From positions 152,394 to 216,393 of the forward strand of contig JABHSK010000001.1 in assembly GCA_018669975.1 (NCBI GenBank): a stretch of DNA of 64,000 bases, read 5' to 3'. Below are positions 17,774 to 50,723 of this stretch, piece by piece. Both the position numbers and the translations under genes were made by a program. Within the stretch, counting starts at the first letter, position 1. The number at the start of each line of letters is the position of its first letter. A model generated the notes under the pieces. That model searched no databases and had not been told where the DNA came from. It was given only the letters and a program-made list of their open reading frames with translations. This DNA is from Candidatus Parcubacteria bacterium (GTDB taxonomy: Bacteria > Patescibacteriota > Patescibacteriia > UBA1558 > GWA2-36-10).

Positions 17774-17935
17774 ATTCTACTCAATTATTGAATTATCAAG
17801 TCCACGAAAATTAACATAATAGGGCTCTTTTGTCAATATTAATTAAAACAAGATTTTTTTATCTACAAAAAAATAAAACGCTTGACATATCTTTTGAGTA
17901 TGTTAGTATGTGTATATAAGACACTAACATAATTT

Positions 17936-18619
17936 ATGTCCAACCCAACAGTACAAGCGGAACACGCTAAACAAAATATCAAACTAGCTGTTGATAATTG
18001 TATTTTTACTGTCAAAGACGGCAAGCTTTTTATTTTACTAATCAAAATGAAGTCTAAGCTCCAGGGGATGTGGGCCTTACCAGGTGGCTTAATTAAAGAT
18101 ACCGAAACAATTGGTGCAGCTGCTCAACGCATTCTTAAACAAGAAACTGGTCTATCAGACAACTATCTCGAACAACTCTATACTTTTAGTCAGCCAAATC
18201 GTGATCCTTTTGCTAGGGTTATTTCTACTGCCTATTTTGCTCTAATTCCTGACGCAAACATTGAACTTAAACCAAGTCCAAAATATGATGATGTTCGTTG
18301 GTATCCTGTTAAAAAACTACCGGAATTGGCCTATGATCATAATCATATCGTTAAATATGCAAAACAAAGATTAGAGTGGAAAATCAGCTACACCAACGCT
18401 GCATGGTCTTTATTACCAGAAAAATTTACTTTGACTGAACTACAAAAAGTATATGAAGCAATATTGAATAAAAAACTGGATAAACGCAATTTTCGTAAGA
18501 AAATAGACAAAGTTGGTCTACTTAAGGAAACTAAACAAACCAAATTAGAAGGTGCACATAGACCAGCTAAATTATATGAATTTTCCAGCAAAAAGAAGAA
18601 AATAGTAGAAATTATCTAA
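17936..18619 (+). CDS. nrtR: NrtR-like regulator: a degenerate Nudix domain plus a C-terminal winged-helix DNA-binding domain.
   Basis: The Nudix box is degenerate (GGLIKDTETIGAAAQRILKQETGL; the RE/EE acidic residues are replaced). The C-terminus reads FTLTELQKVYEAILNKKLDKRNFRKK, reminiscent of the NrtR DNA-binding domain. The gene is encoded in low-GC native DNA. Confidence 0.6.
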   Translation: MSNPTVQAEHAKQNIKLAVDNCIFTVKDGKLFILLIKMKSKLQGMWALPGGLIKDTETIGAAAQRILKQETGLSDNYLEQLYTFSQPNRDPFARVISTAYFALIPDANIELKPSPKYDDVRWYPVKKLPELAYDHNHIVKYAKQRLEWKISYTNAAWSLLPEKFTLTELQKVYEAILNKKLDKRNFRKKIDKVGLLKETKQTKLEGAHRPAKLYEFSSKKKKIVEII

Positions 18620-18894
18620 TTTTACTCCTTTTCTTATATTTTTTTGTTCTTATTTAGTGTACTTTTCACACTAATAAGTAAATATACCTAAGACTTGACA
18701 AAATTACCAAAATATGATAAAAAGAACCGTTTATTTTGTAAATAATTTCAGCTTTAATCCCCTTTCCAAAGGGCGAGCCGTTTGTTGCCTAAAAAATGGA
18801 AATTAAATTAGTTTCTATGCTTTAGGTAGCAAAACCTATATGTTCGTTAACAATTTGGTTTTGAAAAACACTCAACAATGAGAAAGGAGGAGAA

Positions 18895-19755
18895 ATGAGC
18901 CTATTAGAGATTTTCCAGGTAGCAGCCGGCACAGTAGCTGGTCGCGACCACACTCAAGTAGGTAAAAACAATCAGGACGCCTTTTGCTTTGCTGCCCATG
19001 ACGATGTCATGGCTGGTGTAGTCTGTGATGGCTGCAGCACTGGCAAGCATTCGGAGGTTGGTTCTAAACTAATCGCACGCCTGATTGTCCGCCAAATCAT
19101 CACCAACAAGGACAAGTTCCAAGGTGGCGATGACTCTATTTCCCGTTTGATGCAGAGAATTAAAAACTCTGCCCTAATGTACGTCCAGCTTTTAGCTGAT
19201 GGCATGGGCATGAGTTTTTCTCAGGCAATCAATGATTATTTTCTGTTTACCCTGGTGGGTACGATTATTTTTCCGGACAAGAGTATTATTTTTTCCTTGG
19301 GTGACGGTGTCTTTGCCCACAACGGTGAAGTGACCACAGTTGGTCCTTTTCCGGGCAATGCTCCGCCCTACCTGGCTTATAACTTGGTAACAACTGATCT
19401 AGCCACCGAAAATCCTGATCTCCTGGACTTCAATGTCCATGTGATTCATGAAACTTCCCTGACAAGCTCAATCTTGATTGGCTCTGATGGGATCTGTGAC
19501 CTGATCGACATCGCCGAGCTCAATATGCCAGGCAAACCCAAGCTAGTTGGTCCCATGTCACAATTTTGGACAGACGACCGCTACTTCAACAATCCGGATA
19601 TGGTCCGACGAAAGTTGGTCCTAATCAATCGTGAAGCAACCAGACTGGATCGGGAAGGCCCAAGCTTGCAAAAGTATCCAGGCCTACTCCCCGACGATAC
19701 CACTCTGATTGCCATCCGCCGCAAACCCATTACCGAGGAAGGTGGTGAGGACTAA
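18895..19755 (+). CDS. PP2C-family Ser/Thr protein phosphatase-like protein.
   Basis: Motifs GRDHTQVGKNNQDAF, VCDGCSTGKH (DGxG), GSDGICD and DDTTLIAIR. AGGAGG RBS. GC ~55%. Confidence 0.7.
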   Translation: MSLLEIFQVAAGTVAGRDHTQVGKNNQDAFCFAAHDDVMAGVVCDGCSTGKHSEVGSKLIARLIVRQIITNKDKFQGGDDSISRLMQRIKNSALMYVQLLADGMGMSFSQAINDYFLFTLVGTIIFPDKSIIFSLGDGVFAHNGEVTTVGPFPGNAPPYLAYNLVTTDLATENPDLLDFNVHVIHETSLTSSILIGSDGICDLIDIAELNMPGKPKLVGPMSQFWTDDRYFNNPDMVRRKLVLINREATRLDREGPSLQKYPGLLPDDTTLIAIRRKPITEEGGED

Positions 19756-21632
19756 TGAACGTTTACGTTCAAGGACAACTTGTCCGTCTTGATCCTCGCA
19801 ACTCTATCGGTAAAGGTGGCGAGGCCGATGTTTTCAAGATGGGCAGCTCACAAGCTGTTAAAATATTCAAAACACCAAGTCATCCAGACTTTGTTGGACA
19901 AGATCACGAAAAAGCAGCAGCTGAAGCGAGGCTCAAAGAGCATCAGCTGAAGCTGCGCGAATTTCCGAAGGGCCTGCCGCCACGAGTCATTACTCCGGTG
20001 GACTTGGCTACCGACAAATCGGGTCGCCTGATCAAGGGCTACGTCATGCCACTGATTGGTGACTCGGAAGTTCTGCTGCGCTATGGCGAACGCAAGTTCC
20101 GCCAAGGTGTTGTCGGAAACGACATGGTGGTCAATATTTTCACAGATATGCATGACACCATATCCGGCATTCATTCCGTCAAGGTAGTCATTGGAGATTT
20201 CAACGATCTCAACATCCTGGTAACAGATCAGGGTGAAGCCTATTTCATCGATGCAGACAGCTTCCAGTTTAGCAGTTACCTGTGTCGGATGTTTACTGGC
20301 AAATTCGTTGATCCTCTACTCTGTGATCCCAAGCACAAAAGTCCGATGCTCAATAAACCCCATAATGCCGAATCAGACTGGTATTCCTTTGCCGTTATGC
20401 TCATGCAGTCACTGTTGTTCGTCGGTCCCTACGGCGGTATCTACCGTCCCAGGGACAAAGGCAAACGAATGACGCATGATGCTAGGCCGCTGCATAGAGT
20501 GACGATATTTGACCCCGAGGTCAAATATCCCAAGCCGGCTACACCCTACGGTATATTGCCGGATGATCTCTTGCAACAGTTCTATCAGATTTTTGTCAAA
20601 GATCAGCGTGGTCAATTTCCATTAACTTTACTCGAGGGTCTTCGCTGGACTACCTGCAACGCCTGTGGCGCCGAACATGCCCGAGCAATCTGCCCGGAAT
20701 GTTCACAAGCAGCTCCAGCAGCCATCAAGGAAAAAGTCACGATCAGGGGCACAGTCAAATCCACTCGGATCTTCAAGACCGGTGGCACAATTGTCTATGC
20801 TACTGTTCAAAACGGAAAATTGCGCTGGCTCTACCATGAGTCCAATATACTCAAACGCGAAGACGAGTCCCAGGTAGTGAGCGGCAAACTCAATCCTCGG
20901 ATGCGTTTCCGTATCCAGGGAAACAACACACTGATCGGCCAAACCGGCCAATTGGCAGTGGTTTCTCCTGGAAACAAACCTTCACCCATGACTGTCGACA
21001 ACTACACGGGCGTATTACCCATGTTTGATGCCAACGGTGATCACCGCTACTGGTTGCAAAACGGCCAGCTAATGCGTGACGATCGTCTCGGCACCAGCAA
21101 GGTTATCGGCGATGTCTTGGAAAACCAGACTATGTTCTGGACTGGTGACAAGTTTGGCTTTGGATTCTATCGAGCTGGAGAACTATGTAGAGCCTTCATC
21201 TTCGATGCTCAGAAGTCTATTCTCAATGATTCAGTCAAGCTGCCTCCTATCAGAGGTCAGATAGTTGACGCCACCTGTTGCATTAGCAATAACCGAGTCT
21301 GGTTCCTGGTTTCGACCAGGCAAGGCGGCAAGACTATCAATCAGTGCTTGTTGTTCAAGCCTGATGGTACTCTGGTAGCCACAGCTGAAGCTGAAGAAGG
21401 AGACGACTCCTGGCTGTCGACCATCCGTGGCAAGTGTGCTGCTGGCGACTTTATGCTAGCAGCTACTGAAGACGGCCTGGTCCGTATCGAAGCCAATGGC
21501 AGCGGTCTCAGTTTGACCAAGGAATTCCCTGACGCAGAACCATTCGTCCACCCCGGCTGCAGGCTTTTTGCCAGTCGAGAAGGACTTTGTGTCATCGATC
21601 ATCAAGAAATTCGGGTACTGAAAATTTCCTAA
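19755..21632 (+). CDS. Ser/Thr protein-kinase-like protein with a C-terminal zinc-ribbon and a beta-rich domain.
   Basis: Gly-rich loop IGKGGEADVFK with Lys in AVKIFK; catalytic-loop-like IGDFNDLNILV; DFG-like FIDADSF. It also has CNACG...CPEC. TAATG start overlap with the phosphatase suggests translational coupling. Confidence 0.65.
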   Translation: MNVYVQGQLVRLDPRNSIGKGGEADVFKMGSSQAVKIFKTPSHPDFVGQDHEKAAAEARLKEHQLKLREFPKGLPPRVITPVDLATDKSGRLIKGYVMPLIGDSEVLLRYGERKFRQGVVGNDMVVNIFTDMHDTISGIHSVKVVIGDFNDLNILVTDQGEAYFIDADSFQFSSYLCRMFTGKFVDPLLCDPKHKSPMLNKPHNAESDWYSFAVMLMQSLLFVGPYGGIYRPRDKGKRMTHDARPLHRVTIFDPEVKYPKPATPYGILPDDLLQQFYQIFVKDQRGQFPLTLLEGLRWTTCNACGAEHARAICPECSQAAPAAIKEKVTIRGTVKSTRIFKTGGTIVYATVQNGKLRWLYHESNILKREDESQVVSGKLNPRMRFRIQGNNTLIGQTGQLAVVSPGNKPSPMTVDNYTGVLPMFDANGDHRYWLQNGQLMRDDRLGTSKVIGDVLENQTMFWTGDKFGFGFYRAGELCRAFIFDAQKSILNDSVKLPPIRGQIVDATCCISNNRVWFLVSTRQGGKTINQCLLFKPDGTLVATAEAEEGDDSWLSTIRGKCAAGDFMLAATEDGLVRIEANGSGLSLTKEFPDAEPFVHPGCRLFASREGLCVIDHQEIRVLKIS

Positions 21633-21715
21633 ATCTAGGAAAGGAGCCTCCAAAAAAATATTACGCAAGTCAATTCTTTCACAGAACGATTAACCAAACC
21701 TGAGGAGAACATACC

Positions 21716-22762
21716 ATGTCTCAGCTCAACACTCTGCCCGTGCCCGCTCACTTCAATCCGGCTCGCGCCAACGAAGTGTACCGTGTTGGCTACCAGGGTC
21801 TGGCCACCGAAGCCGCAGCCTGGCGCAAACAGCATGACATCCGTCCCGCTGCCAGCGATCGCAAGGTCATCACTCTGATGCCCATCGACTGCCAAAACAC
21901 CTTCTGTCTGCCCGAGTTCGAACTGTTCGTGGGCGGCCAGTCTGGCACCGGTGCCATCGACGACAACGTCCGCTTGACGGAGTTCATCTACCGCAACCTG
22001 GGCGTACTGACCAAGATCACGCCAACGATGGACACCCATCTGCTGATGCAGATCTTCCATTCCATCTTCTGGGTCAACGAGGCCGGCGAAAATCCGGAAC
22101 CCAATGCCACCGTCATCACTCTTGACGACGTCAAGGCGGGAACCTGGAAAGTCAATCCGGCCATCGCGCACAGTATCGCCAGAGGCAACTACACGGCACT
22201 GCAGGCTCACGCCATGCACTATGTCGAGAAGCTGACCGATGACGGCAAGTATCCCCTGATGATCTGGGGTTACCACGCCATGCTCGGTGGCATCGGCCAC
22301 GCTCTGACCTCAATCATCGAAGAAGCCTGTTTCTTCCACGCTGTGGTTCGCCACAGCCAAACTGGCTTCGAAACCAAGGGCGGCGATCCACTGACGGAAA
22401 ACTATTCGGTTCTCCGTCCCGAAGTGCTGACCACCACCGGCGACAAAGTGCGTACTCAGAAGAACGCCATGTTTATCCGTACGCTCCTCGAGTCCGACGC
22501 GGTCATTATCGCCGGTCAGGCCAAGAGCCACTGTGTGGCTTGGACTATCGCCGATCTTCTGGACGAGATCAACGCCCAGGATCCGACGCTGGCCAAGAAG
22601 GTTTATCTGCTCGAAGACTGCACCTCACCGGTGGTTATCCCTGGCGTGATTGATTTCACTGACCAGGCCAACGAGGCATTCCAGCGTTTCGCTGACGCCG
22701 GCATGCACGTGGTACAGTCCACCGATCCGATCGACACCTGGCCCGGCCTCAACCTGGGCTAG
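21716..22762 (+). CDS. Isochorismatase-family cysteine hydrolase, nicotinamidase (PncA)-like, with a ~150-aa extension.
   Basis: MPIDCQNTFC (the VDxQNDF equivalent), metal-binding MDTHLL...FH, and catalytic Cys in GQAKSHCVAWT. Confidence 0.55.
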   Translation: MSQLNTLPVPAHFNPARANEVYRVGYQGLATEAAAWRKQHDIRPAASDRKVITLMPIDCQNTFCLPEFELFVGGQSGTGAIDDNVRLTEFIYRNLGVLTKITPTMDTHLLMQIFHSIFWVNEAGENPEPNATVITLDDVKAGTWKVNPAIAHSIARGNYTALQAHAMHYVEKLTDDGKYPLMIWGYHAMLGGIGHALTSIIEEACFFHAVVRHSQTGFETKGGDPLTENYSVLRPEVLTTTGDKVRTQKNAMFIRTLLESDAVIIAGQAKSHCVAWTIADLLDEINAQDPTLAKKVYLLEDCTSPVVIPGVIDFTDQANEAFQRFADAGMHVVQSTDPIDTWPGLNLG

Positions 22763-22830
22763 TTCCTACTAACTCAAGTTCAATAAGTATTTAGTCAAAC
22801 AACCTTAAACCTCTAAAAGGAGGCTCAATA

Positions 22831-23610
22831 ATGAGTGATGTCAACAGTCTGTTCCAGTCAGCTGCCGATGAAGGCGAATTGTCGCCCGAGGCTCTCGGTG
22901 TATTGCAGGTGGCGGATGTCGGTGCTCAAATCCAGAATGCTCTGGGTGTGGACCCCGACGAGTTCGAGGCTTCCGAGGTCATCCTGATGACCCAGATGCC
23001 CGACGACTCCGGTTCCATTCGCTTTGCTGGCAATAGCCAAGTGATGCGTGACGGCCACAACCTGGTCCTGGAATCGCTCGGCGGCACCAAGCAAGCCGAC
23101 GCTGTCCTGGCCATGTGTCGCTACCTGAACGGTCACGTACTGTATCCTTACAGTCCGCTGGCCCAGGCAGTACGCATGGACAGCAACAACTACGACCCGA
23201 ACCACGGTACCCCGCTCTATGACGAAACGGTAGTCTTGCTCGGTGCGGTCCTGGCCAAGGCCCAGGAGTTCGCCGACAATGGCATCGTCGCTCGGACGGT
23301 GACGCTGATCATCTCCGATGGCGCCGATGTTCACTCCCGTCGCAACACCCCAACCGATGTCGCCAAACTGGTCAAGGACATGCTCAAGCAGGAAAACCAC
23401 ATCGTGGCTGCCATGGGCATCGATGACGGCGACACCGACTTTCGGCAGGTCTTCAGCGAGATGGGTATTCTGGACGAGTGGATTCTGACTCCTGGCAACA
23501 GCGAGAGTGAAATCCGCGCGGCTTTCCAGACCGTTTCGCAGTCGGCCGTTCGTGCCTCCCAGGGAGGCGCCAGCTTCTCGCAGACTGCCATGGGCGGCTT
23601 CGGGAGCTGA
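22831..23610 (+). CDS. von Willebrand factor A (vWA) domain protein, TerY-like.
   Basis: MIDAS-like DDSGS and ISDGAD motifs. It is the third member of a phosphatase/kinase/vWA triad. A terminator hairpin follows at ~23640-23680. Confidence 0.5.
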   Translation: MSDVNSLFQSAADEGELSPEALGVLQVADVGAQIQNALGVDPDEFEASEVILMTQMPDDSGSIRFAGNSQVMRDGHNLVLESLGGTKQADAVLAMCRYLNGHVLYPYSPLAQAVRMDSNNYDPNHGTPLYDETVVLLGAVLAKAQEFADNGIVARTVTLIISDGADVHSRRNTPTDVAKLVKDMLKQENHIVAAMGIDDGDTDFRQVFSEMGILDEWILTPGNSESEIRAAFQTVSQSAVRASQGGASFSQTAMGGFGS

Positions 23611-23819
23611 GCTAGCTCTGGGATAATTCAAAACCAAATATTAGGAGGTGCACCCCACGTGGTGCACCTCCGCCCCTTTTTTCTTTAGAAATAAGAAAAT
23701 TGTAGCTAAAATAATTTGGCTATAACCTTTTTGTTCCTAACCTTAAAAGTTTCGAGCATAGTTTTGAACCTTCACAAATGAAACGTTTAGATAAAAATCT
23801 CAAACCAAGGAGAAAAATC

Positions 23820-24389
23820 ATGGCAAATAACATGCCGCAAAGACTCGTCTACGATGGCTTCCTAAAAGTCAAAGTAGTCGAAACACCCGAGGGACCTCGT
23901 GAAGTGGTCCAGGTAACCAATTCTGTCAGCATTCTGCTCTTCAACCCAGACGAAAAATACGTACTCTTAATCCGACAAGCTCGAGTTCCTATGATTTCTG
24001 ATAGCAATCCTGGCGGCTTCATAGTAGAAACCGTAGCTGGTCGCTTTGATATCAATGTAGGTGTCACAGCATTGGCAATTAAGGAAGCCCAGGAAGAGGT
24101 CGGCGCCACCATCGAAGAAAGCGATGTCGTATTACTTAATGGTGGTAAGCCGCTGGCTTTGTCGCCCGGTGTTTTAACCGAGCGCGCCTACCTGGCCATG
24201 GCCAAAGTTGATGTACCCTACGGCGAAGCCACAGACCGTGTCTTTGGTGTCGCCGATGAAGGTGAAAGCATCCAACGCGTCTTCATGAAATTCGATGAGA
24301 TCACCGATTATCTCAACAGCGGCCAGTGCGAAGACCTGCGTGTCTTTACTCTGCTGAGCATGCTGCTGATGTCGGAAAATTTCGAATAA
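23820..24389 (+). CDS. NUDIX hydrolase, ADP-ribose pyrophosphatase-like.
   Basis: Nudix box AGRFDINVGVTALAIKEAQEEVGA and aaggag RBS. The start was chosen at MANNMPQ (23820). Confidence 0.7.
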   Translation: MANNMPQRLVYDGFLKVKVVETPEGPREVVQVTNSVSILLFNPDEKYVLLIRQARVPMISDSNPGGFIVETVAGRFDINVGVTALAIKEAQEEVGATIEESDVVLLNGGKPLALSPGVLTERAYLAMAKVDVPYGEATDRVFGVADEGESIQRVFMKFDEITDYLNSGQCEDLRVFTLLSMLLMSENFE

Positions 24390-24453
24390 AACCCTCCCAA
24401 ACACATTGACCCGAAGTAATTTGTAATAACGAACCAAAAGAAGGGAAAAAACC

Positions 24454-25332
24454 ATGGCCAAAGATCCTGGAACCATTAAAAGGTTACCTGACGGAACTGT
24501 AAAAGTCAGGGCCCAAAATATGAGTCCTGGCATCCTCAAGTGGCCTGGAGTTCAGTGTGAAAACCCTGATGCTCCCGAAGCCGAGCGATATTACTTCAAG
24601 ATCTTTACTGACAAGACTGTTTATCTGCCCGACGAATACGAACAAGCTGTTCGAGAAGTGCTGCGATCCGGTAAGGATATCGTAGTTTTAGCCGGCAACG
24701 GCTACTCGGATATCAACCCTCAGCGTTGCGCTGACTGGGGCATTAAGCAGGGCGCTTACGAAGAAGCTTCGTTTGCCCTACTGGATAATGCGTACCAGAG
24801 ACTGCGTGAACAGCTAACTGGTATCGATATCCGGATTGCTCATGGAGCATCCCATATGGGTATCGATCTGGTCCTGATGCGTCTGGCTGAGAAATACAAC
24901 ATTCCTCAGTTGGGGCACAGCTGTGTCCGCTATATGTTCTACGTGCAGGACGATGATATCCCAGTATGGGTTGGCAATGATGTCGATCACTACGTCGAAG
25001 GATTCACCGATTCCCTGGACGTTCTGGTGTCAGCCAACGGAGCTCTGCAGTCCTATCGAATGGACGTCAAAGCTGTATTCGAAAAAGGCAAGCACTGGAT
25101 CCCACTCAATGTACTCCAGGCTATTTCTACCACTGGTGGTCCCCCGGCCATGGATGCCGACGGCAAGATCGTCGACGCCGTAGCCCTGTTCTACCAGAGG
25201 GTGCATATGATCACCGTACAGATGGGAGTAGTCGGTGAAGATCACTGGCTCAGCATGGTCGACAAGACCTCAACAACGCTGGTTTCCATCTGTCGCAATC
25301 TGATTAGCCCCCAAAGGGCTTTCATGACATAA
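24454..25332 (+). CDS. Hypothetical protein, possibly a Rossmann-like nucleotide/ligand-binding (SLOG/LOG-like) domain.
   Basis: The only hint is the DIVVLAGNGYSDINPQRCADWGI segment, which loosely recalls DprA/LOG-type glycine-rich strands. No firm motif was found. Confidence 0.4.
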   Translation: MAKDPGTIKRLPDGTVKVRAQNMSPGILKWPGVQCENPDAPEAERYYFKIFTDKTVYLPDEYEQAVREVLRSGKDIVVLAGNGYSDINPQRCADWGIKQGAYEEASFALLDNAYQRLREQLTGIDIRIAHGASHMGIDLVLMRLAEKYNIPQLGHSCVRYMFYVQDDDIPVWVGNDVDHYVEGFTDSLDVLVSANGALQSYRMDVKAVFEKGKHWIPLNVLQAISTTGGPPAMDADGKIVDAVALFYQRVHMITVQMGVVGEDHWLSMVDKTSTTLVSICRNLISPQRAFMT

Positions 25333-25344
25333 AAGGAGGAGTCG

Positions 25345-26601
25345 ATGAAAGACCGACCAATCATCACCTCTCTCATGGACATCGACTTCTACAAGTTGAC
25401 CATGGGACAATTGATTTTTCTCATGTATCCGGATGTGCAAACAACTTTCCGATTCATCAATCGAACCAAGGGTGTGCCTTTGTCGCACTACGTCGACATT
25501 GGTGAACTACGTGAACAGTTGCAGCATGTCCAGACCCTGCGTGTAAACAACACCGAGCTGCACTATCTAAGGGGAACCAACGAATACGGCGAGCGGATGT
25601 TCCGCGAGCCGTACCTAGAATTCCTGCGCGATATGCAGCTACCGGATTTCGAGCTGTCAACTGACAGTGATGGACAACTTCGTATATTCTTCCCTGGTCT
25701 CTGGTCTACCAATACCTATTGGGAGACTCTGGCCCTGTCGATTACCAGCGAGCTGTGGTGTCGTTCCCAGATGAAGCATCTCAGTCGCTTCGAGCGTGAG
25801 CTAATCTGGGCCGAAGGTCAAAAACGACTGGCTACCAAGCTAGCTATCCTAACCGATCCCCAAAACAGCAGTCTGACCATTTCGGACTTTGGTACTCGTC
25901 GTCGCTTCTCCAAGGAGTGGCAGTGGTATGTGGTCCGTACACTGGCTGAGGAACTTCTCCCTGGACAGTTCCTGGGAACCTCCAATGTCCAGTGCGCCAT
26001 GGATCATGGCCTACTACCGATGGGTACCTCGGCTCACGAATTGCCGATGGTTCTATCGGGTATCATGCACGGTAGTGATGATGAAATCCGCGCCTCCAGC
26101 CAGAAGGTTCTGGCGGACTGGTGGGAAATCTATGGCCACGGCCTGTCGATCTTCCTGCCGGATACCTATGGCACTGATTTCTTCTTTAATGATCTGACTC
26201 GTGAACAGGTCGAAAATTGGAAGGGCTTCCGCCACGATTCGGGTGATCCGATCGAGTTTGGCGAGAAAGTTCTCCGCCTCTATCAGCGTCACGGTGTCGA
26301 TCCTCTGGCTACCGGCAAGTTCATCGTTTTCAGCGATGGACTGGATATGAACACTATCATCCAGCTACACCAGCACTTCAGGGATCGCATCCGTATCAGC
26401 TTTGGTTGGGGTACTAACCTGACCAATGACATGGGTCTGCGCACCTTGTCTCTGGTAATCAAGGCTTACGAGGCCTGCGGTCACGGCTTAGTCAAGTTGT
26501 CTGACAACCTGGACAAAGCCACCGGTCTGCCGGATGACATCGAACGTTTCAAGGCTATTTTTGGCCACACCACTACCTATCGACAGGAGTGTTTGGTCTA
26601 A
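25345..26601 (+). CDS. pncB: Nicotinate phosphoribosyltransferase.
   Basis: DIDFYKLTMGQLIF, DFGTRRRFS, GTSNVQCAMDHGLLPMGTSAHE, GFRHDSGDP and KLSDNLDKATG give close collinear similarity to E. coli PncB. A terminator hairpin follows at ~26607-26640. Confidence 0.85.
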   Translation: MKDRPIITSLMDIDFYKLTMGQLIFLMYPDVQTTFRFINRTKGVPLSHYVDIGELREQLQHVQTLRVNNTELHYLRGTNEYGERMFREPYLEFLRDMQLPDFELSTDSDGQLRIFFPGLWSTNTYWETLALSITSELWCRSQMKHLSRFERELIWAEGQKRLATKLAILTDPQNSSLTISDFGTRRRFSKEWQWYVVRTLAEELLPGQFLGTSNVQCAMDHGLLPMGTSAHELPMVLSGIMHGSDDEIRASSQKVLADWWEIYGHGLSIFLPDTYGTDFFFNDLTREQVENWKGFRHDSGDPIEFGEKVLRLYQRHGVDPLATGKFIVFSDGLDMNTIIQLHQHFRDRIRISFGWGTNLTNDMGLRTLSLVIKAYEACGHGLVKLSDNLDKATGLPDDIERFKAIFGHTTTYRQECLV

Positions 26602-26709
26602 TTATATTGGTGGTGACTCCGTGTCACCACCCTTTTCTCAAGTTACTTATGCATTAGGTGATTTAAGAGAAGTAAAAAGTTCATTCACAATTCACAGAAA
26701 GGAAAAACC

Positions 26710-27636
26710 ATGGCTACCATAGTGTATTCATGCCAAGGCATGCAAAATTTGTCCGACGACCTAGTAGGAACTGGCGTACAAGTTAGGCGAATTGACTGGA
26801 AAACGTTTAAGGATGGCTATCCGGACCTTATTATTCCTGATGTCCATGAAATCCGCGGCAATGACGTGGTTTTCCTGGCCAGCATGGAAAATCCCCAAAC
26901 CATCTTCGAACAACTATCAGTTATTTATGCCATACCTCGCTATGGCGCCCGTTCCTTGACCATTGTATTACCCTATTTCCCGACAGCCACCAAGGATCGT
27001 GTGGATGAGGAAGGTGAAATCTGCACCGCCAAAACTCTGGCGAGAATGTTTTCAGCTACTCCCTTGTCTATGCACGGACCGGCTCGTCTGGTGATGTTTG
27101 ACATTCATGCTCTGCAGGAAAGATTCTATTTCGAAGATACCATTATCCCGCAAATGGCTACGGCCATTCCTCTGCTCAAAAAGCAACTGGAAACGGATGC
27201 AAGTATCGCTATCGCCTTTCCTGATGAAGGTGCCTGGAAGCGCTTCCATCGTTTCTTTGAAGACTACCCGCAGATCATCTGCCACAAAGTCCGTCAAGGA
27301 GATGAACGCATCGTCACCATCAAAGAGGGTAATCCGCGTGGTTATCATGTAGTCATCGTCGATGATTTGGTCATGACCGGTGGCACTCTGGATGAGTGTC
27401 GCAAAGTTTGCATCGAAGCTGGCGCCAAGACTGTTAGTGCTTTTGTTACCCACCCGGTCTTTCCCCAAGAATCCTGGAAACGCTTTACTGGCAGTGGTCC
27501 TGATCAATTTAAGAATTTCTGGATCACAGATTCTTGCCCTGATACTATCAAGGCTATTAATCATGCACACCCCTTCAAACTTCTACCCCTGACACAGACA
27601 ATTCGTGATATAATAGATAGCGAAATAAGACACTAA
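26710..27636 (+). CDS. prs: Ribose-phosphate pyrophosphokinase (PRPP synthetase) family protein with an atypical N-terminus. It could be a canonical Prs or an ADPR-PP-synthetase-type paralogue.
   Basis: VMFDIHALQERFYFE (like DLHAEQIQGFFD), IAFPDEGAWKRF, the PRPP-binding loop VIVDDLVMTGGTL, and VSAFVTHPVF. Confidence 0.75.
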   Translation: MATIVYSCQGMQNLSDDLVGTGVQVRRIDWKTFKDGYPDLIIPDVHEIRGNDVVFLASMENPQTIFEQLSVIYAIPRYGARSLTIVLPYFPTATKDRVDEEGEICTAKTLARMFSATPLSMHGPARLVMFDIHALQERFYFEDTIIPQMATAIPLLKKQLETDASIAIAFPDEGAWKRFHRFFEDYPQIICHKVRQGDERIVTIKEGNPRGYHVVIVDDLVMTGGTLDECRKVCIEAGAKTVSAFVTHPVFPQESWKRFTGSGPDQFKNFWITDSCPDTIKAINHAHPFKLLPLTQTIRDIIDSEIRH

Positions 27637-27669
27637 CCAAGACCGCAAGGTCCAAGGAGGAATAAAATC

Positions 27670-28620
27670 ATGAGCAACACCACAGGTATCCTTAGCCGAG
27701 ATCAGATCCGCACAGTGGTCGATCGCGGTGCGCAGTCACTCCTCGATTACTGCCGACTACACAACATTCACTATCTGGTCACTGGTCAGTCCGGCGGTCT
27801 AGATTCGGCTGTTACTCTGGGTTTTGCCCAGCGAGCCTGCCAGTTGGCCGAGGCCAATAATTTTCAGTTGACTTCGGTCGGACTGATTATGCCCTGCCAT
27901 TCCGATGAATCCGCCGAACGCCTAGGTATGAAGGCTATTGAAAAGTTTGGTGCCAAGCAGATGATTATCGATCTGACACCAACTTTTGATCACGCTTTCA
28001 ACAACTCCTCATTGATGAGTCACACCGACATCCAGGTGCGGCAAATTCTTAAGGAAACCGGCGGAGACAAGTCGTTAACTGAATGGACCTGGTCCCAGAA
28101 GATCGCCCAGGGAAACATCAAGGCTCGTCTACGCATGATGTACGGCACCTATCACGTGGCTCGCATGATGCAGGGCATGGTTCTGTCCACTGACAACCTG
28201 TCCGAATTCTGGATGGCCTTTTGGACTATCAACGGCGATGTCGGTGACTACGGCATCGTTCAGCAGATTATGAAGGGTCTGGAACTCTACCAGATTGCCG
28301 AATATTTGGGTGTACCCGACGAGATTCTGGAAGCCAAACCCGATGACGGTCTCAATGTAGGTAACGGCGACGCCGATCAACTCGGCGCCGACTATCCAAC
28401 CATCGACCGCATTATGGTCCATCTAATCCAGCAAGGATTCGATCCCGACGGTTCCATGGATCAACTGGACGGGCTCCCAGCCATCGATGGCGTTCACTAT
28501 CACATCGTTCGCAGCATTGCCGAACGCTGTCTGCGTGGTGCATTCAAGCGCCACGGCACCATCATCCTTTCTCGTGAAAATCTGGATCTACCTCCTATCA
28601 AGGAGATCGTTCTGCCCTAG
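27670..28620 (+). CDS. nadE: NH3-dependent NAD+ synthetase.
   Basis: PP-loop LVTGQSGGLDSAV, NIKARLRMMYGTYHVA and STDNLSEFWMAFWTINGDVGDY show NadE family collinearity. Confidence 0.8.
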   Translation: MSNTTGILSRDQIRTVVDRGAQSLLDYCRLHNIHYLVTGQSGGLDSAVTLGFAQRACQLAEANNFQLTSVGLIMPCHSDESAERLGMKAIEKFGAKQMIIDLTPTFDHAFNNSSLMSHTDIQVRQILKETGGDKSLTEWTWSQKIAQGNIKARLRMMYGTYHVARMMQGMVLSTDNLSEFWMAFWTINGDVGDYGIVQQIMKGLELYQIAEYLGVPDEILEAKPDDGLNVGNGDADQLGADYPTIDRIMVHLIQQGFDPDGSMDQLDGLPAIDGVHYHIVRSIAERCLRGAFKRHGTIILSRENLDLPPIKEIVLP

Positions 28621-30791: not shown

Positions 30792-31511
30792 CTATTTTTT
30801 ACCTAATAAGATACCCAAAATATCTTGAGCTGAATGCTCGCCAACAACATCTTCAAAAAAATGAAGCGTATCAAACTGGCGCAGCAATACTATCACTAAT
30901 ATAACACAAGTGCCGAAAGCTCCCTTTAATATTGAAGATGTAAGTTGAGCTTGGGATGGAATCAGAGAGACAGTTAGTAATAAAATAAAAGCTAAAAAAG
31001 CTATTAAAAACCACTGAAAGTGAGGAATGCGCTCCTGGTATAGAACTACCATCTTTTTTCTAGCTATTTGCAAATCTCTAGCAATCCTCAAATTTTCTCT
31101 AATAACAGCCGCTTCAGCAATTGATGCTTTATTTCTATCAATTGCCCTGTTTAATTTATTTATATCAATTATGGTTGAAGATTTATTTACAAAATGATAA
31201 TCCCAAGCTTTATTTTTTATAATTTTTGTATAATGAGCTTTGATTATTTTTTTTATACTATCAGTGTGCTTTGAACCAAAATATTCAAAATTTCTATACA
31301 AAGAAGACATCATTCCATCAAAAACTGCAATTTGATTTCTAATAGCATTGTATCTTCTACCCTGTCTAGCAATAAAAAATCCTGAAAAAGTTGCAAACAA
31401 GAAAGTTGAGATACTCAAAAATAAAGTGTGTGAATCTGTCGGTGTAAAATTAAAAGAATAATAGACAGCTGATAGAAACAAGAATAGAGTAAATAATAAA
31501 TATTTAAACAT
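30792..31511 (-). CDS. Hypothetical membrane protein (DUF4239-like topology).
   Basis: Transmembrane segments at both the N- and C-terminus with a charged central region. Confidence 0.45.
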   Translation of the reverse strand: MFKYLLFTLFLFLSAVYYSFNFTPTDSHTLFLSISTFLFATFSGFFIARQGRRYNAIRNQIAVFDGMMSSLYRNFEYFGSKHTDSIKKIIKAHYTKIIKNKAWDYHFVNKSSTIIDINKLNRAIDRNKASIAEAAVIRENLRIARDLQIARKKMVVLYQERIPHFQWFLIAFLAFILLLTVSLIPSQAQLTSSILKGAFGTCVILVIVLLRQFDTLHFFEDVVGEHSAQDILGILLGKK

Positions 31512-31586
31512 AATCCCTCCGTTAGTTTATTATTAACATTAAAATTATAACATTTTCTGTTCCAAAATAAAAATTTCCTAAGCTAA

Positions 31587-32078
31587 TCAGGAGTTTTCTA
31601 ATTTTTCCAAAACAATATCTATTTCATGCCTAACATTATCAAACATCGGTAGATCCTTCATTTCTTCAAGTGAAAACCAACCAATATTATGAGACTCCTC
31701 TATTTGATGATTGACCTCCTGCATTGGCACCTCTATCACATAAACAAAATCTAAATGATAGTGCTCAGGGAAATCACCATAGGGATCTATTCTTTCTTCC
31801 AATAAAAAAGTAGGTAAAGGCAAAATATTAGCCCGCTCATCAATAACTTTAACATCCTTTAAAAAAGCTTGAATATCAACACCTGATTCTTCTTTGACCT
31901 CACGCACTGCTGCTTCAACTGGATTTTCCATTGGCTCGATGTGGCCGCCTGGTGGCATCCATTTGTCATATTTAATATGATGCGTCAACAAAAACTTTCG
32001 TGGTTTCATTTTAGAAACTATAAAGACTGTAGCCGTATAATGTTTCTCCCCTAAATTAGGTATTATTTTTTTATCCAT
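31587..32078 (-). CDS. NUDIX hydrolase.
   Basis: Nudix box GGHIEPMENPVEAAVREVKEESGV. Confidence 0.75.
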   Translation of the reverse strand: MDKKIIPNLGEKHYTATVFIVSKMKPRKFLLTHHIKYDKWMPPGGHIEPMENPVEAAVREVKEESGVDIQAFLKDVKVIDERANILPLPTFLLEERIDPYGDFPEHYHLDFVYVIEVPMQEVNHQIEESHNIGWFSLEEMKDLPMFDNVRHEIDIVLEKLENS

Positions 32079-33707: not shown

Positions 33708-35414
33708 TTAGCTCTTCTTAGCAGAAGAGGTGCGTCGTCGACCACTAAGGCGGTCTCCATGCACAATATTATGAACCATGAAACTCAAGGTCTCACTGAT
33801 AACGTTACCAACAATAGCTTCATTGTCATCGTTGCTTAGCATCAGCTGACTGATGGCAAAAGTAGCTACGGTCTCAATATAACGCATCAGACTGGTGTCG
33901 GTCTCTTCGCATTCGAACCAATAACGGTGACTCGTATTGAATGTCAACACGCCCGTCTTCATATCGAACTTGAAGGGCTCACCACTAGTGCCGACCTCAT
34001 CAAAGTCGAGCTGCAGACCAGTGGAATGTCCCCGAACCAGTTGGCGCCTATGGCCTTCCGGACCGGTAACAGTACCAGGCTGGTGCTCTGGCAGATCAGT
34101 GTCAGGCTCACCTCGGGATTCACCCTTGGCTTCAGAATTAGCCTTGTCCTGATTACCTCGGGTAGCCACTGACTTCTTCTTCTGCCTACCGACAGGCTTG
34201 GCCTTTTTATGGCCTGCACCAATAGTTCCAACCTTGAATTCCTTGATCAGATCACGCAGACCCTGGCTGTCGAGCAGACCTTCGACCACTTTGAGTGCTC
34301 TCAGTCCCAACTTCTGGAAGCGGGCTTCCCGAATGTGTGACTCGACAATGTCCAGGTGCTTCTGACCAATATCTTCAAACCATCTTTCAATACAGACACA
34401 CATACCAACTAGGGCGTCGTTAGCCACAAACCTTTTGCGACCAGCGTCCAATTCAACTCCCTGACAAGCAATTTCGCCTTCGAAAATGCCAGACCTGAGA
34501 GCCTGAATTGCCCCGTCGGACAAAATGCCGTCTATCGAATTCCAAAAAGATCTACTACTGCTAGGAATACGGAAATCATCTCCGATTTCTCCAAAGCAGA
34601 CGCTGCCCTTACGAGCACCACGCGGAGTCTTCTTGGCGATAAAAACGCGAAAGCGAGTTTCCCCACAATCTTCACTAACATAGACTGCCTCATCTAGAGG
34701 TCGTCCTTCATATTCTTTGGCCACTACTTGCAACTGAGCACGTACGTTGTCCTCACTGATAAAATCAATCTGCACTACCGTGTCAAGCTTGCGCATGACT
34801 GGACCAAACTTATCCAGAATCTGTTCAGCAAGATCCTGAGCAGTCATCCGGGTAATAGTCCGATCCTTAATAATGCCCCAAGCCTTAATCCTGGTGCGCC
34901 AAGGTACGAAGAAAGAATCTCCGGAACGATGACGTTTAGGGTTGGCACGAGTAGCATGATATTTGATCTGCGGCCGTTCCTTGAGAGGAATAGCACCAGT
35001 ATCACTCATACCACCGATATCACCAGTGTCGAATGTCCACTCCAAGAACCCAGTCTGACCAGGCGTCTTGCGGTAATGGCAAGACGTGAAGGTAAACTTT
35101 TCGCACTTACCCAAATATGAAATCATACCACGGCCCCAGCGACCCATCTTGTCGCGACTCTTCACGGTCTTACCGATTTGAGTCAGACACTGTTCGAATT
35201 TGACTCGGGTCACACCCTGGCCATTATCGACGATGTCCAAACCGCGTTTTTTAAGATTGATACGGATACCAATAAGCGTAGCCTTGGCGTCTAGAGCATT
35301 TTGAACTTGCTCCAGTGTCGCATCCAATAAAGATGGATAAGTACCGGCCACCATCATCAATATTTGACCAAGATTAACATTAATCGTACTTTGACTTCCT
35401 TTTTCAGGTGTCAT
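33708..35414 (-). CDS. GHKL-superfamily ATPase (MORC/HATPase_c_3-like N-terminus) with an uncharacterised C-terminal ~350-aa region.
   Basis: Bergerat-fold motifs QNALDA (N-box), DNGQGV (G1) and GKTVKSRDKMGRWGRGMIS (G2). GC-rich, with a terminator at ~33655-33695. Confidence 0.6.
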   Translation of the reverse strand: MTPEKGSQSTINVNLGQILMMVAGTYPSLLDATLEQVQNALDAKATLIGIRINLKKRGLDIVDNGQGVTRVKFEQCLTQIGKTVKSRDKMGRWGRGMISYLGKCEKFTFTSCHYRKTPGQTGFLEWTFDTGDIGGMSDTGAIPLKERPQIKYHATRANPKRHRSGDSFFVPWRTRIKAWGIIKDRTITRMTAQDLAEQILDKFGPVMRKLDTVVQIDFISEDNVRAQLQVVAKEYEGRPLDEAVYVSEDCGETRFRVFIAKKTPRGARKGSVCFGEIGDDFRIPSSSRSFWNSIDGILSDGAIQALRSGIFEGEIACQGVELDAGRKRFVANDALVGMCVCIERWFEDIGQKHLDIVESHIREARFQKLGLRALKVVEGLLDSQGLRDLIKEFKVGTIGAGHKKAKPVGRQKKKSVATRGNQDKANSEAKGESRGEPDTDLPEHQPGTVTGPEGHRRQLVRGHSTGLQLDFDEVGTSGEPFKFDMKTGVLTFNTSHRYWFECEETDTSLMRYIETVATFAISQLMLSNDDNEAIVGNVISETLSFMVHNIVHGDRLSGRRRTSSAKKS

Positions 35415-36145
35415 TCTTCCCTCCCTTTTTTATCTAGAGTTAACTTTCTCGATTCCTTACTACATAATCCGTGCAAAGCTTGGGCTGCATTATACAAACC
35501 ATCATCTGATATACTACGCCGCAATTGACGGCGATCATTATCAGAAAACTCATCTGACAAAACAGCTTGAGCTAAAGGCAAAAGAGCCTCTACTTGTCCC
35601 TTCAATGCCTGAAATATGGCATCACGTGAACTTTGTCTTAAGCTAGTAGGTAGCGATCGTTCAGTCCTCTGACTTGTTTTGAGAATAGGACGATCATTTA
35701 AACCAACGAAGTCTTCGGCTGGGTAACGTTTGAGTATAGCTTCGATCATAGCGAGCTTAGCTCTACCAGCATTGCAAACGTTATTAAGCACCGGAAAAAA
35801 TGAATCTCTGCCAGCATAACCTAATTTCTGACACGCTTCATCAAAAGACATCCGACCGATTGAAATAATCCATCCCAAAGACAGGACCTGTGGTGCCAAG
35901 TCTCTCAACTCAGCCACATCATATCCCCGACTATGGAGAAAATACTTCAACCGAATAAGATTTTTACCCGAGGGCATTTTTTTACCATTAAGCCAACGAT
36001 AGGCTAATGGATCAGAAGCTTTGCAGAAATCAGCCAAGGGTTTCCTGGCTGCCAATACTTGTGACTTGCCAGTTGGCAAGGTTCCTGCGTAATGATCCAA
36101 ACATTGTCTGGCATTACCTGAAAAATTAACGGGGGTTTTTCCCAT
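35411..36145 (-). CDS. Hypothetical protein, upstream partner translationally coupled to the GHKL ATPase.
   Basis: ATGA overlap with the downstream gene. Strong RBS gaaggagg and a TTGACA-N17-TAATTT promoter on the minus strand at ~36255-36287. Confidence 0.5.
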   Translation of the reverse strand: MGKTPVNFSGNARQCLDHYAGTLPTGKSQVLAARKPLADFCKASDPLAYRWLNGKKMPSGKNLIRLKYFLHSRGYDVAELRDLAPQVLSLGWIISIGRMSFDEACQKLGYAGRDSFFPVLNNVCNAGRAKLAMIEAILKRYPAEDFVGLNDRPILKTSQRTERSLPTSLRQSSRDAIFQALKGQVEALLPLAQAVLSDEFSDNDRRQLRRSISDDGLYNAAQALHGLCSKESRKLTLDKKGREE

Positions 36146-47878: not shown

Positions 47879-48370
47879 GTGTTAAAACCGAAAGGACTCG
47901 TCATGAAGACTATCATTATTTTGGCTCTGACCATCTGCGCGCTTATCCCCCAGTCGGGATATGCTGACGTTGAAATCATCGTCACCCCCACCCCTGGCCT
48001 CTTTGGCACTTCTCACAACCTGAGTAATCAGGAAAGCACTAGTGTCAAATATATGCAAGTGGGCCGCGTGTCTATCTCTGACTTCGAAAACTACCAGTTT
48101 ACCGTTATCAAAAACGGAAAGAAGTTAGACGATATTATCCGCAAAAACACTGCCATTTTCTACACTGGTGACTACACCATCCAAGTCTTCAACCGTCAAA
48201 CCAAAGCTCTTGTAGCCACTGCCAAATTTAACAGCAAAGAAATGCTGAACGCCTGGCAGTTCATGCTATTAATTGCAGTTCTATTTGCGACTGTCATTGG
48301 CCTGTACCTACTTAAAGGTTTTATCGATAACGAACGCCTGGTACGCAGACGCGGCTGGCGACACCCTTAA
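47879..48370 (+). CDS. Hypothetical secreted/membrane-anchored protein.
   Basis: A signal peptide and a C-terminal transmembrane segment; GC-rich. A terminator lies at ~48384-48425. Confidence 0.5.
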   Translation: MLKPKGLVMKTIIILALTICALIPQSGYADVEIIVTPTPGLFGTSHNLSNQESTSVKYMQVGRVSISDFENYQFTVIKNGKKLDDIIRKNTAIFYTGDYTIQVFNRQTKALVATAKFNSKEMLNAWQFMLLIAVLFATVIGLYLLKGFIDNERLVRRRGWRHP

Positions 48371-48452
48371 ACAGATCCTTGTCGAGGTCCTGTTCGGCTA
48401 CTACGCCGAGCGGGACCTCTTTTTTTCCTTATTTTTTAAGTATTTCATACTA

Positions 48453-48481
48453 TTGACAAAAATATGAATATATGATATAAT
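48453..48481 (+). promoter_or_regulatory. Consensus sigma70-type promoter (TTGACA-N17-TATAAT) for the 48581 gene.
   Basis: Exact hexamers with 17-nt spacing. Confidence 0.5.
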
Positions 48482-48580
48482 GCTTTATTCCCCTGGACAA
48501 TCTCGATAATACATATTTGCTGGGGAATTCGCAAGAACCTTAAAATCACTCAAAACGACTCTATCAGGAGGCACAAGCAC

Positions 48581-50711: not shown

Positions 50712-50723
50712 GGAGGTCTTCCA

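Follow-up and report, generated by a model that had tools for sequence, protein, structure and literature searches.

The window analysed here, the whole stretch of 64,000 nucleotides from a Candidatus Parcubacteria contig, contains a series of plus-strand genes headed by a gene for an NrtR-family regulator and including adjacent genes for a PncB-like and a Prs-like protein (Table 1). A preliminary description of this DNA had reported the two open reading frames, the motifs DFGTRRRFS and GFRHDSGDP in the 418-aa product, and NrtR, Nudix and NadE genes in the vicinity; inspection of the open reading frame list and of the sequences confirmed all of this. Housekeeping genes, among them those for aminoacyl-tRNA synthetases, DnaB and DnaK, are also present in the window. 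A phage island was considered and rejected: the sole contig of the viral collection with a homologue of the SLOG-fold protein has no other genes of the cluster nearby.

Table 1. Genes and sequence elements of the NrtR-headed gene cluster (positions in the 64-kb window)
Feature	Coordinates	Strand	Evidence
Candidate NrtR operator upstream of nrtR, TATGTGT-N7-ACACTAA	17907..17927	+	21-bp palindrome, GT-N7-AC core
NrtR-family regulator (Nudix and NrtR winged-helix domains)	17936..18619	+	Pfam NUDIX 1.4e-16, NrtR_WHD 3.8e-28
Candidate NrtR operator upstream of operon, TTAGTGT-N7-ACACTAA	18654..18674	+	perfect palindrome, 0 mismatches
PP2C-type protein phosphatase	18895..19755	+	Pfam PP2C_2 6e-15
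Protein-kinase-like protein, 625 aa, zinc-ribbon-like CxxC...CxxC segment	19755..21632	+	Pfam Pkinase 3.3e-4 (below cut-off), DZR 0.12
Divergent nicotinamidase-like (isochorismatase-fold) amidase, 348 aa	21716..22762	+	family profile, conserved residues
vWA-like protein, 259 aa (probable, weakly supported)	22831..23610	+	motifs, Pfam VWA_CoxE E=0.14
GC-rich hairpin, 11-bp stem, between vWA-like and Nudix genes	23644..23671	+	
Nudix hydrolase, YffH/AdpP/NudF/NudK group	23778..24389	+	Pfam NUDIX 8.4e-6
SLOG/LOG-fold protein, rare family, predicted fold	24454..25332	+	AF2 model pLDDT 92
Nicotinate phosphoribosyltransferase (PncB), 418 aa	25345..26601	+	NCBIfam models, E. coli PncB similarity
Terminator-like hairpin (9-bp stem, then T-run) between pncB and prs	26609..26631	+	consensus scan only
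Class II PRPP synthase (ribose-phosphate diphosphokinase), 308 aa	26710..27636	+	similarity scores, NJ tree, motifs
NAD synthetase NadE	27670..28620	+	Pfam NAD_synthase 6e-31; TIGR00552 95.7 vs cut-off 63.65

The PncB-like protein combines the Pfam domains NAPRTase_N (PF17767) and NAPRTase and scores above the curated cut-offs of the NCBIfam models NF003704 (422.5 vs 379) and TIGR01514 (316.3 vs 269.55). It shares 36% identity with E. coli PncB (E=8e-65). The His of the E. coli PncB motif PMGTQAHE is the phosphohistidine of the ATP-coupled enzymes; this motif aligns with PMGTSAHE (GTSAHE) in the window protein, which also keeps DFGTRRRFS and RHDSGDP. For comparison with phage NARP1, five Adps from phage prs-NAMPT pairs and five Namat were used. 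No significant similarity of the PncB-like protein to any of the five Namat was detected. The selectivity-clamp helix of Namat was published as GSXΦXΦXΦTRD; the adenine-clamp motif GS[FY]TY.[FY].TRD is present in 5/5 Namat and missing from both the window protein and E. coli PncB. With phrog_448 the window protein scores 68.7 bits, compared to 608–641 bits for Namat.

The Prs-like protein contains Pfam domains Pribosyltran_N and Pribosyltran. The generic TIGR01251 is the only NCBIfam Prs model that it passes (123.5 vs cut-off 113), all equivalog-level Prs models having failed. Its best database matches are plant proteins annotated as 'ribose-phosphate pyrophosphokinase 4/3' and animal class II proteins, with 50–59% identity. 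Compared directly, identity is 50–57% to plant PRS3/PRS4 and animal class II enzymes, 27–29% to class I Prs and 24–30% to phage Adps. The blastp scores are 327–350 bits for class II, 81–92 for class I and 36–57 for the five Adps. In a neighbor-joining tree the class II proteins including the window protein, the Adps and the class I proteins each formed a group in 300/300 bootstraps. The score with phrog_619, the PHROG family of Adps, is 101 bits for the window protein and 281–287 bits for real Adps.

Motif content agrees with this placement. The protein carries the class II motifs DIHALQERFYF, HKVRQGDERIV and DDLVMTGGT, and the Adps motifs DPHS, KxRDxxTG and DDICD..F (PP loop DDICD-x-[AG][AG][ST]F), found in the five aligned Adps, are missing from it. 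The PP loop of Adps is the remodelled donor site described in the Adps structure paper (PMC13586617). Two further class II marks are present, an RF-loop Thr where class I has Arg (PTATKDR vs YARQDR) and the loss of the FLAG-region Glu (FKDGYPD vs FSDGE). The N-terminus, which had been called divergent, does differ from that of class I enzymes, in a way that is standard for class II (FxDG[FY]P[ND]L vs FSDGE) and common to plant PRS3/PRS4. A minor deviation is seen in the RF loop, which in the window lineage reads TATKDR and not the usual class II T[GT][TS]xER, the Met-Glu of 'TTMER' being Lys-Asp. Catalytic residues are kept: the His of DIHALQ, the Lys of HKVR, and the DD and GGT of the PP loop. 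Similarity, phylogeny and motifs together identify the 308-aa protein as a bacterial PRPP synthase of class II. Independence from phosphate and a broad range of diphosphoryl donors are features of this class. A class II enzyme from Branchiostoma was shown by assay to have PRPP synthase activity, and diphosphoryl-donor use by plant class II enzymes was studied biochemically (PMC13252144). In the literature on the class we found no assayed bacterial member and none tried with ADP-ribose.

The NARP1 pathway consists of Adps and Namat (Osterman et al. bioRxiv 2024; PMC12774641; PMC13586617), and 97% of Adps are encoded beside a Namat. [quoted passage not shown] The preliminary description had asked whether the two window genes, having the same pair architecture, belong to this pathway. 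The likeness holds at the superfamily level only: the second NARP1 enzyme is of the NAMPT family (NAMPT_N plus NAPRTase; ICP1 Namat carries the NAMPT_N domain), and the gene adjoining the Prs-like one encodes a PncB-family NAPRTase. With the Prs-like protein in class II and the PncB-like protein recognised by curated NAPRTase models, phylogeny, motifs and family scores refute NARP1 membership of the pair by the criterion that the preliminary description had itself set. As far as sequence can define them, one protein is a nicotinate phosphoribosyltransferase of the ordinary kind and the other a class II (plant-type) PRPP synthase, both serving the classical NAD route. The earlier interpretation is thus partly supported, since it had also named a classical Preiss-Handler role as an alternative, and it is this alternative that the two assignments support.

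Directly downstream of prs, the predicted NadE has a single NAD_synthase domain, and no CN_hydrolase (glutaminase) domain was detected in it. The Nudix hydrolase scores 51.8 bits with TIGR00052 (cut-off 79.55) and matches the ADP-ribose diphosphatase PRK10729 (1.3e-10); it is probably an ADP-ribose pyrophosphatase. The 348-aa amidase alone gave no Pfam match. Its family profile, when run against the PDB, matches yeast Pnc1 (2h0r, 6.4e-7), Acinetobacter nicotinamidase (2wt9) and M. tuberculosis PncA, and its conserved residues D58, K221, C273, D106 and H108 fit the nicotinamidase Asp/Lys/Cys triad and DxH metal site. The 259-aa protein has invariant DDSGS (DxSxS, MIDAS-like) and SDG motifs, which with the weak Pfam match make it a probable, though tentatively assigned, vWA-like protein; a profile search against the PDB gave no match, and the single-sequence AF2 model (pLDDT 36) was unusable. 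Sequence searches of the amidase, the 259-aa protein and the 292-aa SLOG-fold protein against the PDB gave no matches either. Homologues of the SLOG-fold protein are found in only 20 clusters of a 5.8-billion-cluster database. Foldseek with its AF2 model returned TRPM channel chains (best TRPM2), LOG phosphoribohydrolases and PpnN among the matches. Its predicted fold class is that of the TRPM channel N-terminal region.

No NadD-like gene was detected in the 64-kb window by tblastn with three NadD-like queries, so the conversion of NaMN to NaAD is unaccounted for locally. The SLOG-fold protein was considered as a NadD substitute and ruled out, since the sister clusters L036, L051 and L027 (see below) carry both. 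Strict co-transcription of pncB and prs is not assured, because the terminator-like hairpin between them and a promoter-like site that precedes it (26580-26608, likewise from a consensus scan only) separate the two genes.

The window regulator scores 159.8 bits with NCBIfam NF050029 (cut-off 400) and is thus a family member and not an equivalog. NrtR, a repressor reported to leave DNA upon ADP-ribose, recognises sites that are 21-bp palindromes with a GT-N7-AC core (PMC2330246). Two such candidate operators flank nrtR. The upstream one overlaps a promoter-like site (17882-17909) and has near-identical counterparts at the same relative position in sister clusters L038 (position 3376) and L051 (2630); a counterpart of the second lies in L038 at 4104, between nrtR and the PP2C gene. 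A relaxed operator pattern was seen 5 times in the whole window against 4.4 expected. Because this count is not above chance, support for the operators rests on the perfect match and the conserved placement. The pncB-prs pair apparently belongs to an NrtR-controlled operon.

The operon recurs in several Patescibacteria with small genomes. NrtR homologues with 51–52% identity head clusters L036, L038 and L051. PP2C (37–47% identity), the 625-aa kinase-like protein (48–56%) and the vWA-like protein (65–67%) are kept in L027, L038 and L051. Since these same three clusters lack prs, the PRPP synthase is an accessory to the cluster and not part of its core. A NadD-like gene is carried by L027, L036 and L051. 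In L036, from an Uhrbacteria genome, the pncB-prs-nadE order is as in the window, with 42% identity for PncB and 49% for Prs; this operon also holds an isochorismatase-family (PncA-type) gene and a fused gene that encodes a NadD-like N-terminal part followed by an NAD kinase at the C-terminal end. The gene context had been described as unable to discriminate between the NARP1 and the classical readings. This is right only in part: L036 pairs pncB-prs-nadE with the fused NadD-like/NAD kinase gene, which argues for NaMN as the intermediate. The NAPRTase and NadE that accompany the uncharacterised module (PP2C, kinase, divergent nicotinamidase-like, vWA-like and SLOG-fold proteins) are of non-orthologous types in different genomes.

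The pair very probably forms a Preiss-Handler module of the classical kind that supplies its own PRPP. Upon NAD cleavage the level of ADP-ribose would rise and the NrtR operon would be de-repressed. The nicotinamidase-like amidase would convert nicotinamide to nicotinate, and the Nudix enzyme would split ADP-ribose into AMP and ribose 5-phosphate. From the latter and a nucleoside triphosphate the 308-aa Prs is predicted to make PRPP, which the 418-aa PncB would combine with nicotinate to give NaMN. An adenylyltransferase encoded outside the window would then form NaAD, to be amidated to NAD by NadE. The operon would thereby consume the same two breakdown products as NARP1, via canonical intermediates.

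A deamidated shortcut modelled on NARP1 can be envisaged, in which the Prs-like protein makes ADPR-PP from ADP-ribose, the PncB-like protein joins it to nicotinate to give NaAD, and NadE completes NAD, so that NadD is dispensable. The window has prs and nadE and no NadD-like gene within its 64 kb, where sisters L027, L036 and L051 carry one, and through NrtR the operon appears keyed to ADP-ribose, both of which fit such a scheme. We nevertheless regard it as highly improbable. Phylogenetically the Prs-like protein groups with class II PRPP synthases, it has no Adps-specific motif, and its partner passes curated NAPRTase models and lacks the Namat clamp. The L036 operon contains both prs and a NadD-like gene, which therefore are not alternatives to each other, and the ADP-ribose-cleaving Nudix enzyme predicted in the window operon would be a competitor for this compound. 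A further view, that the Prs-like protein has lost catalysis and is a regulatory paralogue comparable to PRPS-associated proteins, draws on its failure with all equivalog-level Prs models, only the generic subfamily model being passed, but it hardly agrees with the intact class II catalytic signatures and the 50–59% identity to proteins of classes with measured activity; we consider it exceedingly improbable.

A more serious rival holds that this Prs is the organism's only, housekeeping PRPP synthase, lying by chance beside pncB in a small genome and serving all PRPP-dependent salvage. Class II Prs is not NAD-specific, because it occurs as a stand-alone gene in Desulfonatronospira and, in another contig, beside a UbiA-family prenyltransferase cluster; three sister clusters are without prs, and the hairpin and promoter-like site between pncB and prs point the same way. 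Weighed against this are the pncB-prs-nadE order, maintained between the window and L036 at only 42–49% identity, and the position of the operon behind NrtR-type operators. A housekeeping role is rather unlikely in our estimate. It differs from the preferred reading, a Preiss-Handler module with its own PRPP supply, only in the dedication of the enzyme, the chemistry being identical.

The sole unusual part of the operon is the set of PP2C, kinase, vWA-like, divergent nicotinamidase and rare SLOG-fold proteins. Tentatively, the conserved NrtR-headed supercluster may represent a system, so far undescribed, by which Patescibacteria replenish NAD under the control of signals. The kinase/phosphatase/vWA module and the SLOG-fold protein would detect the products of NAD breakdown and control the rebuilding of NAD from nicotinamide and ADP-ribose. 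Were this true, the supercluster would be a cellular counterpart of the phage NARP pathways, relevant to surviving NAD-depleting attacks or to a symbiotic lifestyle. The NAD economy of Patescibacteria is poorly understood, and a conserved uncharacterised module with regulatory and enzymatic components is here tied to their NAD salvage. Annotation of the cluster as anti-phage defence was rejected, PADLOC having returned no meaningful matches: no TerY-P model was matched and only weak generic PP2C and kinase matches were obtained. TerY-P, a triad of vWA, PP2C and Ser/Thr kinase reportedly described by Aravind's group, is mentioned in the defence-system literature. The window likewise groups genes for PP2C, a zinc-ribbon-like kinase and a probable vWA protein; it differs in the weak vWA assignment and in the nicotinamidase-like gene inserted between the kinase and vWA-like genes.

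The Prs-like protein shares with class II PRPP synthases (plant PRS3/PRS4, Branchiostoma and the bacterial class II of PMC13252144) 50–59% identity, the diagnostic motifs, the loss of the FLAG-region Glu and the RF-loop Thr. Its RF loop is TATKDR where theirs are TTMER-like, and the NAD-operon setting was previously undescribed. The analysis puts a class II enzyme into a defined bacterial pathway context.

NrtR-regulated operons described earlier include prs-nadV in Shewanella, Acinetobacter and Cytophaga and pncA-pncB-nadD-nadE in Clostridium and Pseudomonas (Rodionov et al. 2008, PMC2330246). In common with these, the window operon has an NrtR gene at its head, an upstream 21-bp GT-N7-AC palindrome and a committed prs beside a pyridine phosphoribosyltransferase gene. 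The rationale for committing prs to NrtR control, that ADPR yields ribose 5-phosphate and then PRPP, was proposed in the same work and would apply here. Unlike in the published operons, the partner of prs is pncB and not nadV, the Prs is of class II, no nadD lies within the window, and genes for PP2C, kinase, vWA-like, divergent nicotinamidase-like and SLOG-fold proteins are added.

Since NARP1 was described, any adjacent genes for Prs-like and NAPRTase-superfamily proteins readily prompt re-annotation as an ADP-ribose shortcut. Placement in class II or among Adps, PP-loop and DxH motifs, PncB or NAMPT architecture and the Namat clamp motif discriminate between the two from sequence alone; applied here, they averted a false NARP1 call. 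The window pair and NARP1 have in common a Prs-superfamily gene adjoining a type II PRTase-superfamily gene and, as we propose, the task of rebuilding NAD after its cleavage to ADP-ribose and nicotinamide. The window Prs-like protein, however, lies outside the Adps clade and lacks the remodelled PP loop of Adps, its partner, of the PncB and not the NAMPT family, is without the adenine selectivity clamp, and the route proposed for the window would take more enzymes, proceeding via PRPP, NaMN and NaAD.

Both open reading frames of the PncB-like and Prs-like pair singled out in the preliminary description are present. They belong to a series of ten genes, all on the same strand, that runs from the gene for NrtR to the gene for NadE.

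Genes of the NrtR–NadE series (window positions)
Product	Coordinates	Strand	Basis of assignment
NrtR	17936-18619	+	
PP2C phosphatase	18895-19755	+	
Kinase-like protein, 625 aa	19755-21632	+	
Nicotinamidase-like protein, 348 aa	21716-22762	+	Family profile
vWA-like protein, 259 aa	22831-23610	+	Motifs, weak Pfam match
Nudix hydrolase	23778-24389	+	
SLOG/LOG-fold protein, 292 aa	24454-25332	+	Predicted structure
PncB, 418 aa	25345-26601	+	Pfam NAPRTase_N + NAPRTase
Prs, 308 aa	26710-27636	+	Pfam Pribosyltran_N + Pribosyltran
NadE	27670-28620	+	

For both NF003704 and TIGR01514, the PncB-like protein scored above the curated cut-off. It is 36% identical to E. coli PncB (E = 8e-65), the alignment spanning the DFGTRRRFS, RHDSGDP and histidine PMGT(S/Q)AHE motifs. 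None of the five Namat proteins compared was significantly similar to it; all five carry the clamp motif GS[FY]TY.[FY].TRD, which is absent from the PncB-like protein. Its PHROG score was 68.7 bits, compared with 608–641 bits for Namat. Judged by its sequence, the protein is a PncB. The gene architecture that the pair was said to share with the phage NAD+ reconstitution pathway NARP1 (Adps, an ADP-ribose pyrophosphokinase, and Namat) holds at the superfamily level but not at the family level, since Namat belongs to the NAMPT branch.

Among NCBIfam models, the generic one for ribose-phosphate diphosphokinase is the only one that the Prs-like protein passed (123.5; cut-off 113). It fell below all class I equivalog models, which explains the earlier impression of divergence. 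Its closest relatives in a 5.8-billion-cluster database (50–59% identity, near full length) are plant proteins named “ribose-phosphate pyrophosphokinase 4/3”, unnamed lancelet, mollusc and brachiopod proteins, and a few bacterial proteins, e.g. from Desulfonatronovibrio. The comparison sets comprised five phage Adps sequences from prs-NAMPT gene pairs (FKP3, ICP1, nataliec, Phireball and CELFI) and four class I enzymes (from E. coli, Acinetobacter, Enterococcus and a Microcystis phage). Blastp scores were 327–350 bits with class II enzymes, 81–92 with class I and 36–57 with Adps. In a neighbour-joining tree built on 306 trimmed columns, class II (with the Prs-like protein), class I and Adps formed three clades, each recovered in 300 of 300 bootstraps; the phylogenetic placement proposed earlier thus separates the protein from Adps. 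Its motifs DIHALQERFYF, HKVRQGDERIV and DDLVMTGGT follow the plant class II pattern, in contrast to DPHS, KxRDxxTG and DDICD..F of Adps. The PP loop that differs between the two is exactly the one that, with a β-hairpin, is rewired in Adps for binding of the ATP donor beside ADP-ribose (PMC13586617, a 2026 structure paper). Bacterial class II PRPS were recognised in a 2026 preprint (PMC13252144), which defines the class by two features: an RF loop resembling TTMER, and a FLAG glutamate that has been lost. The Prs-like protein fits both and deviates only in its RF loop, where Met-Glu is replaced by Lys-Asp. According to the same preprint, a Branchiostoma enzyme of class II has measured PRPP synthase activity; earlier biochemistry on the plant members of the class is also cited there. 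Clade and motifs together identify the Prs-like protein as a putative class II PRPP synthase, not an Adps.

The exact window proteins were found in the same gene order on several metagenomic contigs. Clusters of the same kind, but more distantly related, are found in genomes of Komeilibacteria (L038), Patescibacteria (L051) and Uhrbacteria (L036), all Patescibacteria, and on a Logan metagenome-assembly contig (L027). Among named matches, the closest PncB relatives and all named sister clusters are from Patescibacteria/Parcubacteria. L036 retains the order pncB-prs-nadE (42% identity for PncB, 49% for Prs); its operon additionally contains an isochorismatase-family (PncA-type) gene and a gene for a 465-aa fusion of a C-terminal NAD kinase to a part homologous to a cytidylyltransferase-family, NadD-like protein. 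Since prs and an NaMN adenylyltransferase share this operon, NaMN, and hence PRPP, would be the expected intermediates. Such ~460-aa fusions (NadD-like nucleotidyltransferase N-terminal; NAD kinase, with a GGDG motif and Pfam NAD_kinase, C-terminal) lie at 11013-12410 in L036 and 11045-12427 in L051; no counterpart was found in the window. L027, L038 and L051 lack prs and all have an NAPRTase (in L027 the NAPRTase and NadE are of non-orthologous types), so prs appears to be an accessory PRPP supplier to an NAPRTase-centred cluster. Elsewhere class II prs is a stand-alone gene or lies beside a UbiA-family prenyltransferase cluster, and the class is therefore not NAD-specific. At locus L015 (125-6662), a bacterial class II prs (53% identity to the window Prs) is directly followed by genes for a polysaccharide deacetylase, a UbiA-family prenyltransferase, a GT2 glycosyltransferase and an FAD oxidoreductase. 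This set presumably resembles PRPP-consuming decaprenyl-phosphoribose-type pathways; if so, this neighbourhood would independently support the view that bacterial class II enzymes make PRPP.

These placements bear on whether the pair is NARP1-like or serves the classical Preiss-Handler route. With Prs in the class II clade and its partner in the NAPRTase family, the NARP1-like reading is refuted by the very outcome that the preliminary description had named for this purpose. A shortcut in which the pair would form NaAD has a single observation in its favour, namely that no NadD-like gene was found within the 64-kb window; because every sequence-level test places both enzymes in canonical families, we consider it very improbable. 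The Preiss-Handler reading is supported, with the genomic context also in favour of this canonical route.

The G+C content is 47–60% from the PP2C gene through nadE (18895-28620), compared with 34.5% in nrtR and ~35–36% in the flanks and the intergenic operator region. The contrast suggests horizontal acquisition of the coding block or a compositional constraint of a different kind. Nonetheless, in other genomes too the low-G+C nrtR is conserved alongside the cluster. Two further patches of raised G+C (~0.47) may be additional acquired islands: 33708-36145, encoding a 568-aa HATPase_c_3 protein and a 244-aa protein without family assignment (minus strand), and about 48000-52000, including a T4-type RNA ligase homologue (51193-52320). 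Adjacent paralogues of class II (Asp/Asn/Lys-type) aminoacyl-tRNA synthetases lie at 9007-10425 and 10553-11839 (minus strand). Within the operon there are two strong GC-rich hairpins, at 23644-23671 and 26609-26631; the latter is terminator-like and lies between pncB and prs beside a promoter-like site (26580-26608). Such elements hint at possible sub-operonic transcription or attenuation.

The family profile of the 348-aa protein matches nicotinamidases (yeast Pnc1, 6.4e-7; Acinetobacter; M. tuberculosis PncA), with conserved Asp/Lys/Cys set and DxH site. Because L051 has, in addition, an isochorismatase-like, PncA-type gene (assigned from sequence), it is uncertain which substrate this long form uses. 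At 50% clustering, this divergent family, which includes P0261, P0268 and P0272, comprises ~2,100 representatives. A number of its proteins, such as the fused form that accompanies the PncA-type gene in L051 (6307-8049), are 580–613 aa long and carry a ~240-aa N-terminal domain unmatched in Pfam. With 20 clusters in the 5.8-billion-cluster database, the family of the 292-aa protein is very small. Its predicted structure (pLDDT 92) is a SLOG/LOG-type Rossmann domain, best matched by TRPM channel chains (TRPM2 best), LOG phosphoribohydrolases and PpnN, and the protein may bind or cleave a nucleotide. SLOG homologues in Obscuribacterales, Methanosarcinales and Bdellovibrionales MAGs stand alone; only in Patescibacteria are they within the NAD cluster. 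Two motifs typical of vWA domains, DxSxS and SDG, occur in the 259-aa protein, whose Pfam match is weak. The trio it forms with PP2C and the kinase is similar to a TerY-P-type triad, but these genes matched none of the PADLOC TerY-P models. The attached module of kinase, PP2C, vWA-like, nicotinamidase-like and SLOG proteins, which is conserved in Patescibacteria, merits further study.

A perfect 21-bp palindrome, TTAGTGT-N7-ACACTAA (18654-18674), lies between nrtR and the PP2C gene, and a related one, TATGTGT-N7-ACACTAA (17907-17927), covers the −10 element of a promoter-like site upstream of nrtR. With their 21-bp symmetry and GT-N7-AC core, both candidate operators agree with published descriptions of NrtR sites, and L038 and L051 have near-identical palindromes at the same relative positions. 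A relaxed pattern was not enriched across the whole window (5 found, 4.4 expected), so the support is positional and comparative, not statistical. A third, weaker NrtR-like palindrome, TTAGTTT-N7-ACATTAA (31522-31542, two mismatches), is flanked by genes for a second small Nudix protein (31587-32078, minus strand) and a bestrophin-like membrane protein (30792-31511, minus strand). DNA binding by NrtR is reported to be suppressed by ADP-ribose (Rodionov et al. 2008, PMC2330246). The same work already noted second prs copies beside nadV under NrtR control and gave the rationale, from ADPR through ribose 5-phosphate to PRPP. On present assignments, the pair is part of an NrtR-linked NAD salvage operon of this known type, with a committed PRPP synthase.
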